This document shows, in pieces, positions 16,623 to 22,520 of a DNA stretch of 64,000 nt. The stretch is from a virus. Under the pieces are notes generated by a model. That model saw only the letters and a program-made list of their open reading frames with translations. It searched no databases and was not told the origin of the DNA. The stretch is taken from the IMG/VR virus record IMGVR_UViG_3300022555_000027, positions 1 to 64,000 of that record. One strand, given 5' to 3'. How positions within the stretch are numbered: the first letter of the stretch is position 1; every line of letters begins with the position of its first letter. A program made the position numbers and the translations under genes.

Positions 16623-19351
16623 GCACGTCACCCAATCTCGGCATCACGCACATTGACGTGAGCCAAGCCCAGAAGGAAGTCACGGCCAACGCCGCTTTCG
16701 ACGCCTTGGACCTTGCGATCACCGGGATGGCTACCGTTGCGTTGACCACGACAACGGCCACTGTCTCTTCGGCAATTGCAACCAGTTGCACGACGATGAA
16801 GTTTACCGGAACGCCCGGAGGGACATGCATCGTCACAGTGCCGGCAGCGAAAAAGGACTGGTTCATTGTCAACACGACGGCTTCCGCGCTCCTCCTGACC
16901 ACCGGCTCAGGCACCACGGTTAGCGTGGCCGCAACGAGCAATGCCCTGATCTACTGCGACGGGACCAACGTCATCGCCATCGCCGCAACCACCATCGCCA
17001 TGGCCTTGTCCGGTCTGACCGACTGCTTGATCAGCACCCCGACCAATGGCCAGTACCTGACCTATAACACCACAGCCTCGAAGTGGGAGAACACCTCCCT
17101 GACCGTTGTGACGGCCCTGAATGCCCTGACCGACGTGAACGTGACGGAGGGTAGTGGCATCAATGGCTTCGCCCTCACTTGGTCGAACAGCACCAGCAAG
17201 TGGGTCGCGTCGGCAATCACCAGCACCCTTGCCGGATGCACTGACGTGAACGTGACGGAAGGTAGTTCCATCGACGGTAAGGCGCTCACCTGGAACAATT
17301 CGACCAGCAAGTGGGTGGCGACTGCGATCTCGACCTCTTTGTCTGGCTGCACTGACGTAAATGTCACCGAAGGGTCGGGTATCAACGGATATGCACTCAC
17401 CTGGAATAATTCGACCACCAAATGGGTGGCGACTGCGGTTACAAGCAGCATCGCCGGCTGCACAGACGTGTCCATCTCCAGCCCGACCAATGGCCAAGCC
17501 CTGATTTATAACAGCGGGACCGCCAAGTGGGTCAACGCTGGGTATACTGCTCCTTCCCTTGAAGCCCTCAGTGACGTGTCTGTTTCCAGCCCAACGGCTG
17601 GGCAGAGTATCCAATGGAGCACGGGCTCGGCGAGGTGGGTGGCGTACACCCCGGTCACGACAGTTGGGACCTTGACCGATGTTACCGTTTCAAGCGCGGC
17701 GAATGGGCAGGTGCTTACCTGGGTTTCATCCGCTGCCAAGTGGGAGAACGTGGCCATTCCCGCTCAGTCACTAAGTGGCTTGGCCGACGTGAACTTGACC
17801 AGCATCGCGAACGGGCAGCAACTCGTATGGAGCGCCTCGACCACCAAGTGGGTGAACAGTACCCCGGTCACGGCCCTTTCCGGTTGCTCGGATGTTACGA
17901 TCTCCAGCCCGTCTGGTTCCCAGGTGCTTGCCTGGAATGGGACGGATGGGAAGTGGGAGAACACCACCATCGGTGGCCTCGTTGTGACCACCCTTTCCGG
18001 CTTGACCGATGTGAACGTCACCGAAGGCGCCGGGATTGATGGCAAGGCCCTGACATGGAGCAATTCGACCAGCAAGTGGGTAGCATCATCGCTCACGACC
18101 ACCCTCGCCACCCTCACCGATGTCAACGTGACCGAGGGCAGCGGGATAGACGGTAAGGCCCTGACCTGGAATAACAGCACCAGCAAGTGGGTCGCCGCCT
18201 CAGTAGCCAGCGCCCTTTCCGGCTTGTCCGATGTCAACGTGACAGAGGGGTCAGGTATTGACGGCAAATACCTCAAGTGGAGCAACGGAACGGGGAAGTG
18301 GGTGGCAACCCTCCCGGCCCTTTCGGACCTGTCCGACGTTTTCATCGTCGAGGGTAGCACAATCAACGGCTACGTTCTGATGTACCAGAACGTTTCGTCG
18401 AAGTGGGTTTCCGGTGCCTTCACCTTGAAAAACCTTGCGGATGTCGCTGTCTCTGAGAACTCTGGCGACAACGGAAAGGCCTTGATATGGAATAACTCGG
18501 TTGCGTTGTGGCAACCGGGGACGCCATCACTTGCCCTTTCGGCATTGACTGATGTAAACTTCACAGAAGGTTCCGGGATTGATGGTAAGGCACTCACCTG
18601 GAGCAACTCAACATCGAAGTGGGTGGCCACGTCTATCGGAACGTCCTTGGCCGGGATGACCGACGTGAACGTGACTGAAGGCTCAGGGATAAACGGTTAC
18701 GCCCTGACCTGGAGCAACTCGACAAGCAAGTGGGTGGCTACTTTAATAAGTAGTGGTTCATCGACACTATCCGGCCTGACCGACGTGAATGTTTCGGAAG
18801 GCAGTGGTATAGATGGGAAGTACCTGAAATATGACAACGCATCATCCAAGTGGATTGCCGGAACCCCGTCTGGCGGTGGTGGTGGGTCGCCAACCCAATA
18901 CTACTCTGGCACCACTTCAGCATCCACAATCGACCCTACAACGACCTCATATCCCTACAAGGTGGCAGGCAACACTCCACCAGCCGCGACTGATGGAACC
19001 CAGGTTCTTTCTCTTTCCTGCGCCGCTACGTCTACTACTCAAAACATGTGGATACACGCACAGGTTCATGGTGGGTGCTTCACGACGGCGGACTGCTTCT
19101 GGGTCACGGTACTTGCTGGTTCCACTGTGATCTATGTGGGTATATGCGACAATAATCAATCGAGCATGGGAACGCTAACGTCGTTTGATTTTCAATACAC
19201 ACCAGGAACAACAAGCGCAGTGACCTATACTGTACGTGTTGTTCCAATGGGTTCGACTTATAATTACAAGGTCTATTTCAACGGAGGCAGCGCAACATCG
19301 GGAAGCGTAGGCTTTCTGAGCAACATCATCATAACCCCCGTCAACACGTAA
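16619..19351 (+). CDS. tail fibre / receptor-binding protein with DUF2793-like N-terminus and 17 internal repeats
   Basis: 'TSPNLG......QAQKEVT.N.A...LD' N-terminus; repeats 'L..LTDVNVTEGSGIDGKALTWxNSTSKWV'. Confidence 0.8.
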   Translation: MSTSPNLGITHIDVSQAQKEVTANAAFDALDLAITGMATVALTTTTATVSSAIATSCTTMKFTGTPGGTCIVTVPAAKKDWFIVNTTASALLLTTGSGTTVSVAATSNALIYCDGTNVIAIAATTIAMALSGLTDCLISTPTNGQYLTYNTTASKWENTSLTVVTALNALTDVNVTEGSGINGFALTWSNSTSKWVASAITSTLAGCTDVNVTEGSSIDGKALTWNNSTSKWVATAISTSLSGCTDVNVTEGSGINGYALTWNNSTTKWVATAVTSSIAGCTDVSISSPTNGQALIYNSGTAKWVNAGYTAPSLEALSDVSVSSPTAGQSIQWSTGSARWVAYTPVTTVGTLTDVTVSSAANGQVLTWVSSAAKWENVAIPAQSLSGLADVNLTSIANGQQLVWSASTTKWVNSTPVTALSGCSDVTISSPSGSQVLAWNGTDGKWENTTIGGLVVTTLSGLTDVNVTEGAGIDGKALTWSNSTSKWVASSLTTTLATLTDVNVTEGSGIDGKALTWNNSTSKWVAASVASALSGLSDVNVTEGSGIDGKYLKWSNGTGKWVATLPALSDLSDVFIVEGSTINGYVLMYQNVSSKWVSGAFTLKNLADVAVSENSGDNGKALIWNNSVALWQPGTPSLALSALTDVNFTEGSGIDGKALTWSNSTSKWVATSIGTSLAGMTDVNVTEGSGINGYALTWSNSTSKWVATLISSGSSTLSGLTDVNVSEGSGIDGKYLKYDNASSKWIAGTPSGGGGGSPTQYYSGTTSASTIDPTTTSYPYKVAGNTPPAATDGTQVLSLSCAATSTTQNMWIHAQVHGGCFTTADCFWVTVLAGSTVIYVGICDNNQSSMGTLTSFDFQYTPGTTSAVTYTVRVVPMGSTYNYKVYFNGGSATSGSVGFLSNIIITPVNT
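17005..18865 (+). repeat. 17 tandem ~35-40 aa coding repeats in the tail fibre
   Basis: Counted in the translation; recognisable at DNA level (gacgtgaacgtgacngaagg..., accagcaagtgggt); boundaries approximate. Confidence 0.85.
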
Positions 19352-19364
19352 GGAGGGCCGTGAG

Positions 19365-20219
19365 ATGCCGCCCATTACTCCGATCCCGGTTCCGCCGTCA
19401 ATGTGGGACATACTGAACACGATAAACGCCGCCAGCGTCATCGGGATGCTGGTAGGCGTAATCCTCTACTATGTCGCCATTCGGGTCAGCCGCCGCGATG
19501 TCGTCTTGTTGATCACCAATCTGTGGTCGGTGTGGCTGGGGAAGGGGATACCGGCACAGCCGTCCAAGCCGACGCCGCCGGCCCCCTTGGAAGATGTCAT
19601 CCCGGCTCACCTGATCCCTAAGCATGAGATTGAGTTCATGAGGATCATGTCAACTGGAATGTCGGTGGGTTTCATCTTCATTGACAACACGCAAACCATC
19701 CGGGTCTTCAACCCAACCGCCGAAGACATCTTTGGGTATAGCTCGGAAGAGGTAATAGGGGCGGACCTGTCCCTCCTAATGCCGCCCCCGGATGCTGACC
19801 GGCATCACTTCTACATCGACCAGTACCGAGAGCAGCGCAACTACAAGCGCGTATCCCGCACGGTGGGGAAGACGCGACCGGTCATGATCAAGAAGTCGGA
19901 TGGGAAGACGGAACTTGTGATGCTTTCCATCACAGATGTTCAGAACGGCATTAGCGGGTTCGTCGGCCTAATCTGGAGGCAGGATGTCCACCCAGTACAG
20001 ACTGTGGCAGTGGTTCCTGTTGTGCCGCGCCAGGAGGCCATCATACCCATGAACTCGAACGCTAAGGAATTGGTAAGGCCGGCTAGGCCTGAACCGTTGC
20101 TGAACTTTTCAGCAACTACGCGCAGGGAGATTGCGGCTCTGGCCGTTTCGCAAGAAACGGTGAAACTGCGGTCCGAGAACTGTGAACTAAACCGAGGCGC
20201 ACTTGTGCGCACAAATTAG
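19365..20219 (+). CDS. membrane-anchored PAS-domain protein (FixL heme-PAS-like)
   Basis: N-terminal TM helix (AASVIGMLVGVILYYVAI); PAS 'FNPTAEDIFGYSSEEVIGADLSLLMPPPDADRH..YI..Y...G..R......DG....LSI'. Confidence 0.8.
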   Translation: MPPITPIPVPPSMWDILNTINAASVIGMLVGVILYYVAIRVSRRDVVLLITNLWSVWLGKGIPAQPSKPTPPAPLEDVIPAHLIPKHEIEFMRIMSTGMSVGFIFIDNTQTIRVFNPTAEDIFGYSSEEVIGADLSLLMPPPDADRHHFYIDQYREQRNYKRVSRTVGKTRPVMIKKSDGKTELVMLSITDVQNGISGFVGLIWRQDVHPVQTVAVVPVVPRQEAIIPMNSNAKELVRPARPEPLLNFSATTRREIAALAVSQETVKLRSENCELNRGALVRTN

Positions 20220-20232
20220 AAAGCAGGCTTAA

Positions 20233-20865
20233 ATGAAACCAGTTTCAAGCGCGACGATCATTGGATTGGTTGGCGCCAGGGGCTGCGGCAAGACGATGAT
20301 CGCCAAAACCCTTGAAGCTCAGTGCGGTTGGAAGCGTATCCGCTTCGCGGACGGCATCAAACGGATGCTCGGGGCCTTGTGCCTCACGGCTGAACAGCTT
20401 GACGGTGGGGACAAAGAGATACCCGCCGACCAGCTTTGCGGGGCGACCCCCAGGTGGGCACTCCAAAGTCTCGGCACGGAGTGGGGCCGCAACCTCATTC
20501 ACCCTGACTTGTGGGTGATTGCGCTCTTTCGCTACGTCGAAAAGATGCAGTGGCAGCGTGCCTACAGCCGGGTTGTTATTGACGACGTGCGCTTCCCGAA
20601 CGAAGTGAACGCCATCCGAGAGCGTGGGGGCGAGATATGGGTGGTCCGCAGGCCCAGCGTTGAGCGGGTAGCTACATGGCTTGACAAGCTGGTTGGTCAG
20701 TACCCGGTGCTGTATCGGTATCTCCGCTTCGTGACGAACGTCCAGCACCCGTCAGAGGTTCACTGGCATGAGTTCGTTGCAGATAGAGTGGTCGATAACT
20801 CAGGAGACATTTACTATGTACTAGAGCAAGTGAAAGCCTTAAACATGGGGGTTCCCAATGACTGA
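20233..20865 (+). CDS. deoxynucleoside monophosphate kinase
   Basis: 'IIGLVGARGCGKT', 'FAD.IK', 'TPRWALQ.LGTEWGR', 'VVIDDVRFPNE'. Confidence 0.88.
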   Translation: MKPVSSATIIGLVGARGCGKTMIAKTLEAQCGWKRIRFADGIKRMLGALCLTAEQLDGGDKEIPADQLCGATPRWALQSLGTEWGRNLIHPDLWVIALFRYVEKMQWQRAYSRVVIDDVRFPNEVNAIRERGGEIWVVRRPSVERVATWLDKLVGQYPVLYRYLRFVTNVQHPSEVHWHEFVADRVVDNSGDIYYVLEQVKALNMGVPND

Positions 20866-21139
20866 CCAGCCCAGCGCAGTGGCGCCAGACCCGGCGGGTC
20901 CGCGCGCAGACCTTTCCCAAAGCCGCACACTCAAGGGCGCGGCTCTTGCAGCACTTTCAACTGTCTTGGATCAGATCGTTGACCCGGCCCTGGCCGCCGT
21001 CCAACAGATCGCTCAGACCACTCAGCCGCTCGACAGCGTGGCCCCGATGTTCCACCAGATGTTCGTCTGGTCGACGCTGGCGGGCATCGTCCTCGCCGTC
21101 TACGCGCGTTGGGACGACCATCGGCGGGGGCTTCGCTAA
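20858..21139 (+). CDS. small membrane protein, putative holin-like
   Basis: 93 aa; hydrophobic segment followed by basic C-terminus 'YARWDDHRRGLR'; directly before the endolysin. Confidence 0.55.
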   Translation: MTDQPSAVAPDPAGPRADLSQSRTLKGAALAALSTVLDQIVDPALAAVQQIAQTTQPLDSVAPMFHQMFVWSTLAGIVLAVYARWDDHRRGLR

Positions 21140-21184: not shown

Positions 21185-21976
21185 ATGAGCGACGCATTCG
21201 AGGCCTTGGCCATTGGCCAGATCGTGATCGACGATGCCAAGCAGCGCGAGGGCTTTTACGCACGGGTCTACAACGACCGCTCCGATGGAAAGGGCACCCA
21301 GACCATCGGCTATGGAACGGTTGACCCGGAATATGCCAAACCGGGCGTCGTCTTGACCGAACCCGAGGCCACGGTGTTGCTGGTTAAGGAATTGACCCGC
21401 AAGGCCGACGACATCAAGGAGTGGTTTCGCAAGTGCGGGCACCCCTGTCCATCCCAGGCGCTGTGGGATGTGATGCTGGATTTTTCGTACAACTGCGGAG
21501 AAGGCGCCCTCGAAACATCGACGTGGTTGAAGCTCCATCATGAGGGAAAGTGCTTCGGGGCGGCCTCGGCCGACGTTGGCACGCTCATGAAGATAGGGGA
21601 GGGGACCTTCCTGCCGACCAATGCCGCTGATGCAATCTGCATGTACTCGAAGCAAAACCACGAGTTCGTGCTGGGGCTGCTGCATCGACGCATGATGAAC
21701 CGCAGCGACTATCTGATGGCTGTCAACGGTCCCTACAGCTACATCGTTGAGCCTGCTGGTGTCGAAATGCCCAAGCCACGCGTGGCCCAGGCTATCCCGG
21801 CCCCGGCACACCCCGCAGTCGCCGTAGGCGGCCCTGTGGGCGTGGCCCTCGTAACGAGTGCTGTGGTAGCAGCCAACGTTCCAAACGCAACGTGGGTGTT
21901 TCCTGTGGCCGTTGCGGTCCTCGGCGTTGTCGCGGTTGTCGCCGTGATCATCGTCATCAAGAACCGGAGTAAGTAA
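21185..21976 (+). CDS. GH24 lysozyme endolysin with C-terminal membrane anchor
   Basis: 'REG.....Y.D......TIGYG', 'DF.YNCG', 'GL..RR'; hydrophobic C-terminus. Confidence 0.85.
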   Translation: MSDAFEALAIGQIVIDDAKQREGFYARVYNDRSDGKGTQTIGYGTVDPEYAKPGVVLTEPEATVLLVKELTRKADDIKEWFRKCGHPCPSQALWDVMLDFSYNCGEGALETSTWLKLHHEGKCFGAASADVGTLMKIGEGTFLPTNAADAICMYSKQNHEFVLGLLHRRMMNRSDYLMAVNGPYSYIVEPAGVEMPKPRVAQAIPAPAHPAVAVGGPVGVALVTSAVVAANVPNATWVFPVAVAVLGVVAVVAVIIVIKNRSK

Positions 21977-22239
21977 TGGGCGTTATCATTTCCGCTGTCA
22001 CGGGGTGGTTCACCTCGTCTTCGTGGGCGATCTATGCAGCCATTGGCGCGGTGATCGTCGCAATCGTCGGGCTGTTGCTCTTCCGCCTGACCTCACAAGC
22101 AGAAGCCCTCGGTGAAACCGTGGTTCGGCTGGATGTCCTCAAGGAGAACGCACGGGCGATCAAAGCTCGGGACGTAGCTGGAGCCCTTCCCTCTGACCCG
22201 GCTTCCACCGTTAAGCGGTTGAGGGACGGGTCATTCTGA
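21976..22239 (+). CDS. putative i-spanin (Rz-like)
   Basis: N-terminal TM plus helical region, ends 'RLRDGSF'; follows the endolysin. Confidence 0.65.
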   Translation: MGVIISAVTGWFTSSSWAIYAAIGAVIVAIVGLLLFRLTSQAEALGETVVRLDVLKENARAIKARDVAGALPSDPASTVKRLRDGSF

Positions 22240-22253
22240 TGGAGGATTAGGTT

Positions 22254-22520
22254 ATGAAGATCAAAAAGGGAAAGCTCTGGGCTCACCTCGCAACGATCCT
22301 CCTGGCGGTCGTAAGCCTGTCTTTAGGTGCCTGTGGAACTGATCATATTAGCACGGCATCGGTGTGCCCGGTTCCGAAGGAATACTCGCAGCCCTTCATG
22401 ATCCAGGCGGCCAACGAACGCGAAAAGCTGCCCCCGGAGAGCGCGGTCGGGGCACTGGTGGATGACTACGGGGCTGAACGGAATGAGCTTCGAGCGATCC
22501 AAAAAACCGAAACCCCTTGA
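22254..22520 (+). CDS. putative o-spanin lipoprotein (Rz1-like)
   Basis: Signal peptide with lipobox LGAC; 'CP...YS', 'DY...R..LRA'. Confidence 0.7.
   Translation: MKIKKGKLWAHLATILLAVVSLSLGACGTDHISTASVCPVPKEYSQPFMIQAANEREKLPPESAVGALVDDYGAERNELRAIQKTETP

Follow-up and report, generated by a model that had tools for sequence, protein, structure and literature searches.

Introduction

Oxygen sensing by haem-PAS proteins is textbook knowledge for bacteria, but to our knowledge no such sensor has been characterised in a virus. FixL is established in alphaproteobacteria, and the FixL of Sinorhizobium meliloti is also membrane-anchored. In the protein of Bradyrhizobium japonicum (BjFixL), His200, on the F-alpha helix, is the proximal haem ligand, Arg220 the distal O2-binding residue, and Arg206 a haem propionate and FG-loop switch residue. 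Sensor and kinase are separate proteins in the NosP-NahK system: NosP is a haemoprotein that regulates the histidine kinase NahK, and the two are co-cistronic (PMC11784011). A phage PAS protein has also been tied to lysis: VqmA-Phi of vibriophage VP882 is reported to be a PAS receptor that triggers lysis (Silpe & Bassler 2019, Cell 176:268; cited in PMC10468136).

We analysed an uncultured phage related to Rhizobium phages, known from a 96,269-bp record in IMG/VR (CheckV completeness 89%). The window, by which we mean the whole stretch of DNA that was analysed, is the first 64 kb (64,000 nucleotides) of this record. An earlier note, made from the letters of the window, had described there a membrane-anchored, FixL-like haem-PAS protein at the head of the lysis cassette, had proposed that it links lysis to oxygen, and knew of no characterised example. 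The last statement is roughly right for haem-PAS proteins but passes over VqmA-Phi, a known lysis-triggering PAS receptor of a phage.

Results

A rare gene for a membrane-anchored PAS protein

The PAS gene starts 13 nt past the stop codon of the tail-fibre gene, its AAGGAGG is ideally spaced from the ATG, and its composition is like that of the phage's own genes (Table 1). The ORF is real, as the earlier note had it, and the peptide strings quoted there are present in its translation.

Table 1. Features of the PAS locus and of the kinase/regulator locus. Coordinates are window positions unless marked as phage genome.
Feature	Position	Strand	Basis or remark
Shine-Dalgarno AAGGAGG	19350..19356	+	8 nt ahead of ATG; overlaps tail-fibre stop codon; read directly
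ORF for TM protein with predicted haem-PAS domain, 284 aa as it stands	19365..20219	+	native part about 19365-20042
Membrane helix, residues 22-40, then RVSRRD	19428..19484	+	hydropathy, AF2 helix
Amphipathic helix 2 (residues 43-57) and Pro-rich linker (residues 60-85)	19491..19619	+	AF2
Predicted FixL-class haem-PAS domain, residues 93-205	19641..19979	+	Pfam, phmmer, Foldseek, NCBIfam
His147 codon; pairs with BjFixL His200	19803..19805	+	alignment
Arg171 codon; pairs with BjFixL Arg220	19875..19877	+	alignment
IS200/IS605 right-end remnant: last ~57 tnpB codons and omegaRNA-like hairpins, fused in frame to PAS gene	20043..20226	+	
dNMP kinase	20233..20865	+	phrog_139 E 6e-42, PF21448; 13 nt downstream of PAS gene; adjacency same in L007
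93-aa membrane protein, holin candidate by position	20858..21139	+	hydropathy; L110 counterpart position is a phrog_1356 holin
Lysozyme-type endolysin, two C-terminal hydrophobic segments	21185..21976	+	PF00959 E 1.6e-14; hydropathy
i-spanin-like protein (87 aa, N-terminal TM) and o-spanin-like lipoprotein (88 aa, LGAC lipobox)	21976..22520	+	
Regulator, 232 aa, N-terminal XRE HTH (HTH_3) and C-terminal receiver	phage genome 82360-83058	-	
Histidine kinase, 473 aa, 6-7 TM (~220 residues of membrane helices), HisKA and HATPase_c	phage genome 83070-84491	-	

The family is rare. Its full-length members number three among 5.8 billion protein clusters: the window protein, its closest homologue P0002 (218 aa, 61% amino acid identity) and P0093 (225 aa, 41%). 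When 1.84 billion representative proteins were searched, all other strong matches were cellular multi-PAS kinases. Neither the whole protein nor the PAS core had a tblastn match, even at E 1, among 50,697 deposited phages, and a profile search of genome contigs with the family alignment gave none. IMG/VR searches with the protein, two alignments, P0093 and the phage's histidine kinase found no related locus with readable context, and a broader PAS query (A4) returned only multi-PAS proteins of unrelated phages. The sole match in JGI metagenomes was a contig of 1,570 bp (L007). In the ESM Atlas, which we treat as a lead only, the nearest clusters are PAS-only proteins of 120-140 aa and are 56-61% viral. 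A separate observation concerns an unrelated 125-kb UViG (IMGVR_UViG_3300012942_000033), which encodes a 553-aa multi-PAS protein without an output domain directly after the gene for an 81-aa membrane protein (L103:4562-6470).

The window protein is built from one membrane helix at its N terminus, a linker rich in Pro and one PAS domain. Hydropathy revealed one strong membrane segment (residues 23-41, KD 2.05). In an AF2 model built on 22 sequences, residues 22-40 and 43-57 form helices, the Pro-rich linker is disordered, the PAS core (residues 100-210) has a pLDDT of ~95, and all residues past 212 fall below 50. The 21 N-terminal residues carry no positive charge; by the positive-inside rule the PAS domain is therefore placed in the cytoplasm, and the predicted topology is N-out/C-in. 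Identity to the orthologue is 72% in the PAS core, 67% in the N-cap, 57% in the juxtamembrane helix and linker, and 30% in the anchor, and S55, I62, P63 and P66 of that helix and linker are invariant in all three family members. This pattern of conservation fits a passive tether bearing a functional sensor. Two other readings of the gene were considered and rejected: a dual-start holin/antiholin arrangement (Met1/Met13), because the 12-residue extension is uncharged, and a periplasmic haem-c PAS, because the native part contains no Cys and no CXXCH motif.

Relationship of the PAS domain to FixL and DosP

Pfam recognised a PAS domain by two models, PF00989 (residues 93-199, E 2e-9, 37.9 bits against a cut-off of 22.6) and PF13426 (E 2e-8, 34.9 bits against 27), and detected no other domain in the protein, neither a kinase nor any other output domain; a PHROGs search of the protein gave no match. 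With phmmer against all PDB sequences, 13 sequence groups were matched at E 7e-13 to 2e-6, all of them haem-PAS (BjFixL, RmFixL, EcDOS, DosP). BjFixL ranked first (E 7e-13), and the next match followed only at E 0.04. The top 24 Foldseek matches of the predicted fold were all FixL, EcDOS or DosP, with BjFixL at TM 0.88, rmsd 1.4-1.7 Å and 36% identity. The best NCBIfam models were rhizobial FixL (E 6.7e-16) and then DosP. The FixL sensor-kinase model NF041777 gave 58 bits against a cut-off of 850 and was covered in its PAS part only. A FixL sensor kinase combines haem-PAS, HisKA and HATPase_c in one chain; with neither HisKA nor HATPase present, the phage protein does not count as a FixL. To the extent that sequence and fold are informative, these searches support the assignment of its PAS domain to the FixL/DosP class of haem-PAS domains.

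We then numbered residue pairs on the phmmer alignment from the known BjFixL residues. H147 pairs with H200, R171 with R220, and L187/I189 with L236/I238, while Y150, Y154 and R155 pair with Y203, Y207 and R208. H147 is present in every sequence of a 22-member alignment of relatives; R171 is kept in P0002, and P0093 has His then Arg at this place. Three differences from BjFixL stand out: R206 is replaced by Gln (Gln153 in the window protein and in P0002, Ala in P0093), H214 by Arg, and the FG loop is longer by four residues. We judge it quite probable that the protein binds haem. The FixL strings given in the earlier note match the solved BjFixL sequence, and both residues that it had singled out, the proximal His and an Arg at the distal position, are kept in the alignment. 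The HMM and structural comparison with FixL that it had proposed found only haem-PAS proteins as nearest solved relatives by sequence and predicted fold. HMM, PDB sequence and fold searches thus bear out its reading of a membrane-anchored, output-less FixL-like haem-PAS protein.

An IS605 remnant at the end of the gene

The last ~59 codons of the ORF (20043-20219; residues ~227-284) are not native. Over residues 232-284, identity to the C-terminal 53 residues of P0003, a 424-aa TnpB of the IS605 family, is 91%, and window positions 20067-20225 (159 nt) match, at 80% nucleotide identity, the 3' end of a TnpB element from a Rhodospirillales MAG (L088). P0002 ends at query residue ~214, and its stop codon on L007 lies 4 nt ahead of the dNMP kinase start. 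When aligned with L007, which is free of the remnant, the window DNA shows an insert of about 184-215 nt right where the PAS gene ends. GC3 is 0.56 in the IS-derived tail versus 0.75 in the native part. The absence of the tail from P0002 and L007, the TnpB match and the GC3 together indicate that the native protein ended near residue 226; the present ORF continues past that point in the frame of tnpB and terminates at the tnpB stop codon. The earlier note had taken all 284 codons as one gene: the ORF exists as described, but its IS605-derived end had been missed. The foreign 59-residue tail might impair the present allele. More generally, this in-frame remnant shows TnpB elements remodelling phage accessory genes.

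Both main hairpins of the remnant are kept relative to L088 via compensatory changes. Such changes are expected for an omegaRNA scaffold. Rfam found no family at threshold in the window. Folding of the whole tail region did not surpass that of shuffled sequences (z -1.75), and the case for an omegaRNA-like structure rests on the compensatory changes instead. The 3' end of the remnant abuts the start of the dNMP kinase gene, so that a guide read from the flank would cover this start region. The phage genome has two intact tnpB genes, both distant. A near-identical TnpB (P0290), from the 90% cluster that includes P0003, is encoded on an 82,835-bp contig, which probably also carries the PAS relative P0093. 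An IMG/VR search with TnpB returned four ~100-kb phages, unrelated to the window phage.

The PAS gene and the lysis region

The AAA+ ATPase just downstream points to the nearest cultured relatives of the phage. It is 54% identical to that of the Rhizobium phages vB_RleS_L338C, P11VFA and RHph_I4, and 35% identical to those of Agrobacterium JP1 and the Rhodobacter RcMenchie group. The phage and its cultured relatives have in common a backbone of tail, lysis, AAA+, DUF1257/DUF2997 and replication genes. These closest cultured relatives infect Rhizobium, Agrobacterium and Rhodobacter, and the nearest IS copy comes from a Rhodospirillales MAG; both facts make an alphaproteobacterial host probable.

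All genes from the tail fibre to the spanins overlap or are separated by gaps of at most 13 nt, with a single gap of 45 nt before the endolysin gene, and no promoter- or terminator-like site was found between them. We infer that the PAS gene is expressed late, together with the tail and lysis genes. The 93-aa protein encoded after the dNMP kinase has no family match of its own. The hydrophobic segments of the endolysin cover residues 209-229 and 230-258, and the enzyme appears to be C-terminally anchored; the endolysin of a related UViG (L110) has an N-terminal SAR-like segment instead.

The earlier note had put the PAS gene at the head of the lysis cassette. This is only partly right, since a dNMP kinase gene intervenes. 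However, in relatives this gene is itself embedded in the lysis region: besides the window (20233-20865), we found it there in L338C, RHph_I4 and L110 (L099:9351-10025, L100:3856-4530 and L110:6550-7164). In all three, a holin (phrog_1356 in L110) lies between the dNMP kinase and the endolysin. The slot before the dNMP kinase is occupied in relatives by differing small membrane proteins of unassigned function. In L338C it holds a 97-aa DUF6127 protein with a C-terminal TM (gp044, L099:8877-9170), in RHph_I4 a 97-aa protein, and in L110 (5750-6475) a 137-aa multi-TM protein of phrog_8980 plus a coiled-coil protein of 102 aa with an N-terminal TM. The TM-PAS gene fills this very slot, and the description is thus defensible by comparative position. 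A dNMP kinase within the lysis region appears to be a trait of this group of ~100-kb alphaproteobacterial siphophages.

The synteny of PAS and lysis genes is of limited reach. The order PAS, dNMP kinase, 93-aa protein is kept in L007, whereas none of the 12 relatives with the same tail-lysis-AAA+ backbone has a PAS gene near its lysis genes. Since the only readable neighbourhood belongs to close kin (61% amino acid identity), the linkage is not independent evidence. Across 80 dNMP kinase loci no other gene was common with the PAS region, and none of 49 unrelated phage records with a dNMP kinase had a PAS_9 match. The gene is absent from the 12 backbone relatives and from the 50,697 deposited phages, so lysis in this lineage works without the PAS protein, which is an accessory and not a core lysis gene product. 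On the question of a holin or antiholin, the protein has one TM helix and its gene lies in the lysis region, but the dNMP kinase stands between and the 12 relatives do not carry the gene. Neither the whole protein nor its N-terminal 92 residues matched a PHROG holin or antiholin family, and the earlier suggestion of a holin/antiholin-like protein gains no support from this search.

A kinase and a regulator elsewhere in the phage genome

The phage has a histidine kinase and a regulator of its own (Table 1). The pair is encoded beyond the end of the window; it lies between two phage genes, those for dUTPase and ThyX, and not in host flank, and it is absent from the cultured relatives. A domain search of the kinase found no PAS and no cytoplasmic sensor domain. 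Kinase core and receiver had their best NCBIfam match in NahK/ErcS, a model annotated as "near NosP" (171 bits versus 127 for the next family); the score of the kinase is below the cut-off of that model, which is 400 bits. The earlier note had named a lysis neighbour or host FixL as possible partners of the PAS protein but had missed this pair.

Discussion

Fold, pocket residues, membrane segment, lack of an output domain and gene order suggest, at the level of sequence, that the phage reads the O2 or redox state of its host late in infection. The PAS protein would cross the inner membrane once, with the N terminus outside and the remainder in the cytoplasm, where a b-haem PAS sensor of the FixL/DosP class would reside. 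It would be made late, from one packed transcription unit with the tail fibre, dNMP kinase, holin-like protein, endolysin and spanins. Having no enzymatic or DNA-binding output, it can act only via protein contacts at the membrane, for which the conserved N-cap helix, the PAS core and the juxtamembrane helix would be the most likely surfaces. In this way a late membrane event would depend on the O2 or redox state of the host, or on NO/CO. The most probable candidate for that event is the timing of holin-dependent lysis, with the PAS protein as an accessory modulator. From this we infer that lysis could be gated by O2. As a whole, the idea of a late, membrane-tethered haem-PAS sensor that tunes holin-dependent lysis is a serious candidate, short of a probable one. 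Its partner and its effect on lysis, which we rank first on position and co-transcription, are tentative.

The sensor could instead be detached from its kinase. The haem-PAS would then dock on the PAS-less kinase of the phage and cause the XRE-HTH/receiver regulator to be phosphorylated, and O2, NO or redox state would control phage or host transcription. An output-less sensor and a sensor-less kinase in one phage genome are suggestive. The kinase lacks a cytoplasmic sensor domain, the regulator combines HTH_3 with a receiver, and NahK/ErcS is the best model for the kinase core and receiver, a family regulated in trans by the separate haemoprotein NosP (PMC11784011). PAS, kinase and regulator are, moreover, all absent from the cultured relatives, and the pair sits between the dUTPase and ThyX genes. 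On the other hand, NosP and NahK are co-cistronic, whereas 63 kb separate the PAS gene from the kinase gene (about 32 kb on a circular genome), and the two differ in strand and in module. The NahK score is far under the cut-off (171 versus 400 bits), and none of the top 120 kinase homologues lies on a contig of 50,515 or 82,835 bp, the lengths of those with P0002 and P0093. We regard this docking as unlikely. A bolder version, in which haem sensor, NahK-like kinase and XRE-HTH/receiver form a complete disassembled pathway that gates both phage transcription and holin-dependent lysis by O2 supply, we regard as more unlikely still.

The same haem-PAS could also act on the host, as a decoy or dominant-negative subunit on FixL-type or other PAS kinases that blunts the microaerobic response. 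The host probably is an alphaproteobacterium, as judged from the hosts of the relatives and the IS copy, and the N-cap helix, which mediates PAS dimerisation, is conserved at 67%. Yet identity to FixL haem domains is 36%, as it is to the best PAS of a host-like MAG, which is low for specific heterodimerisation with host FixL, and late co-expression with tail and lysis genes would be a poor time for reprogramming host transcription. Interference of this kind seems to us very doubtful. Finally, the protein may not work as a haem sensor: its PAS domain may bind another ligand, or only oligomerise, or the present allele may be disabled by its IS-derived tail. R206Q, H214R, the four-residue FG-loop insertion and the variable distal Arg in P0093 would agree with such a loss, as would a C-terminal tail that is foreign and predicted to be disordered. 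However, the proximal His is invariant, the nearest relatives by sequence and fold are all haem-PAS, the PAS core is 72% conserved between orthologues, and a disordered tail that follows the last strand would not necessarily upset the fold; we consider a non-haem or disabled protein improbable. Lysis modulation by a tethered haem-PAS sensor stays our preferred reading. If the protein does bind haem and O2, it would open a way to ask whether the respiratory state of the host sets the time of lysis or of gene expression in phages; such timing, if real, would be relevant in soil aggregates, sediments and root nodules.

Among known systems, the regulators of lysis timing T4 RI/RIII and lambda S107 are comparable by analogy only: they are small membrane accessories that set lysis time to a signal, with no sequence or fold relation to the phage PAS protein and no cofactor-binding sensor domain. 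VqmA-Phi is closer in being a phage-encoded PAS protein that ties lysis to a sensed signal, but, as described, it is soluble, binds the autoinducer DPO and acts on transcription through an HTH output, with neither a haem pocket nor a membrane anchor. PpSB1-LOV and SBW25-LOV (PDB 8A33, 7YX0) are effector-less PAS/LOV proteins that signal by protein contacts or oligomer switches; they are flavin sensors, are not membrane-anchored, and rank below FixL, EcDOS and DosP in the fold search. The FG214 haem-PAS (PDB 10JX) carries an HTH, has no membrane anchor, ranks lower in the fold search too and is matched in sequence at E 0.04 only.

NosP-NahK and H-NOX-kinase pairs consist of a stand-alone haemoprotein and a separate kinase. 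Their sensor, like the phage protein, has no output domain, but NosP is not a PAS protein, and the PAS and kinase genes of the phage are far apart. EcDOS/DosP (PDB 1S66, 1V9Y, 9CDR) is the second-best sequence and fold match (E ~1e-8, TM ~0.8); its haem-PAS is joined to GGDEF/EAL, an output that the phage protein does not have. FixL (B. japonicum, PDB 1DP6/1XJ4/8JS5; S. meliloti, PDB 1D06) has the same fold at a TM-score of 0.88 and shares the proximal His, the Arg220, Tyr203, Tyr207 and Arg208 equivalents and the distal Leu/Ile pair. Unlike FixL, the phage protein lacks HisKA/HATPase, has Gln for Arg206, Arg for His214 and four more residues in the FG loop, and consists otherwise of one TM helix and a Pro-rich linker. 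What the locus adds to these systems is a predicted FixL-class domain that has lost its kinase, is anchored in the membrane and is encoded in a putative late operon beside the lysis genes of a phage whose relatives infect rhizobia.
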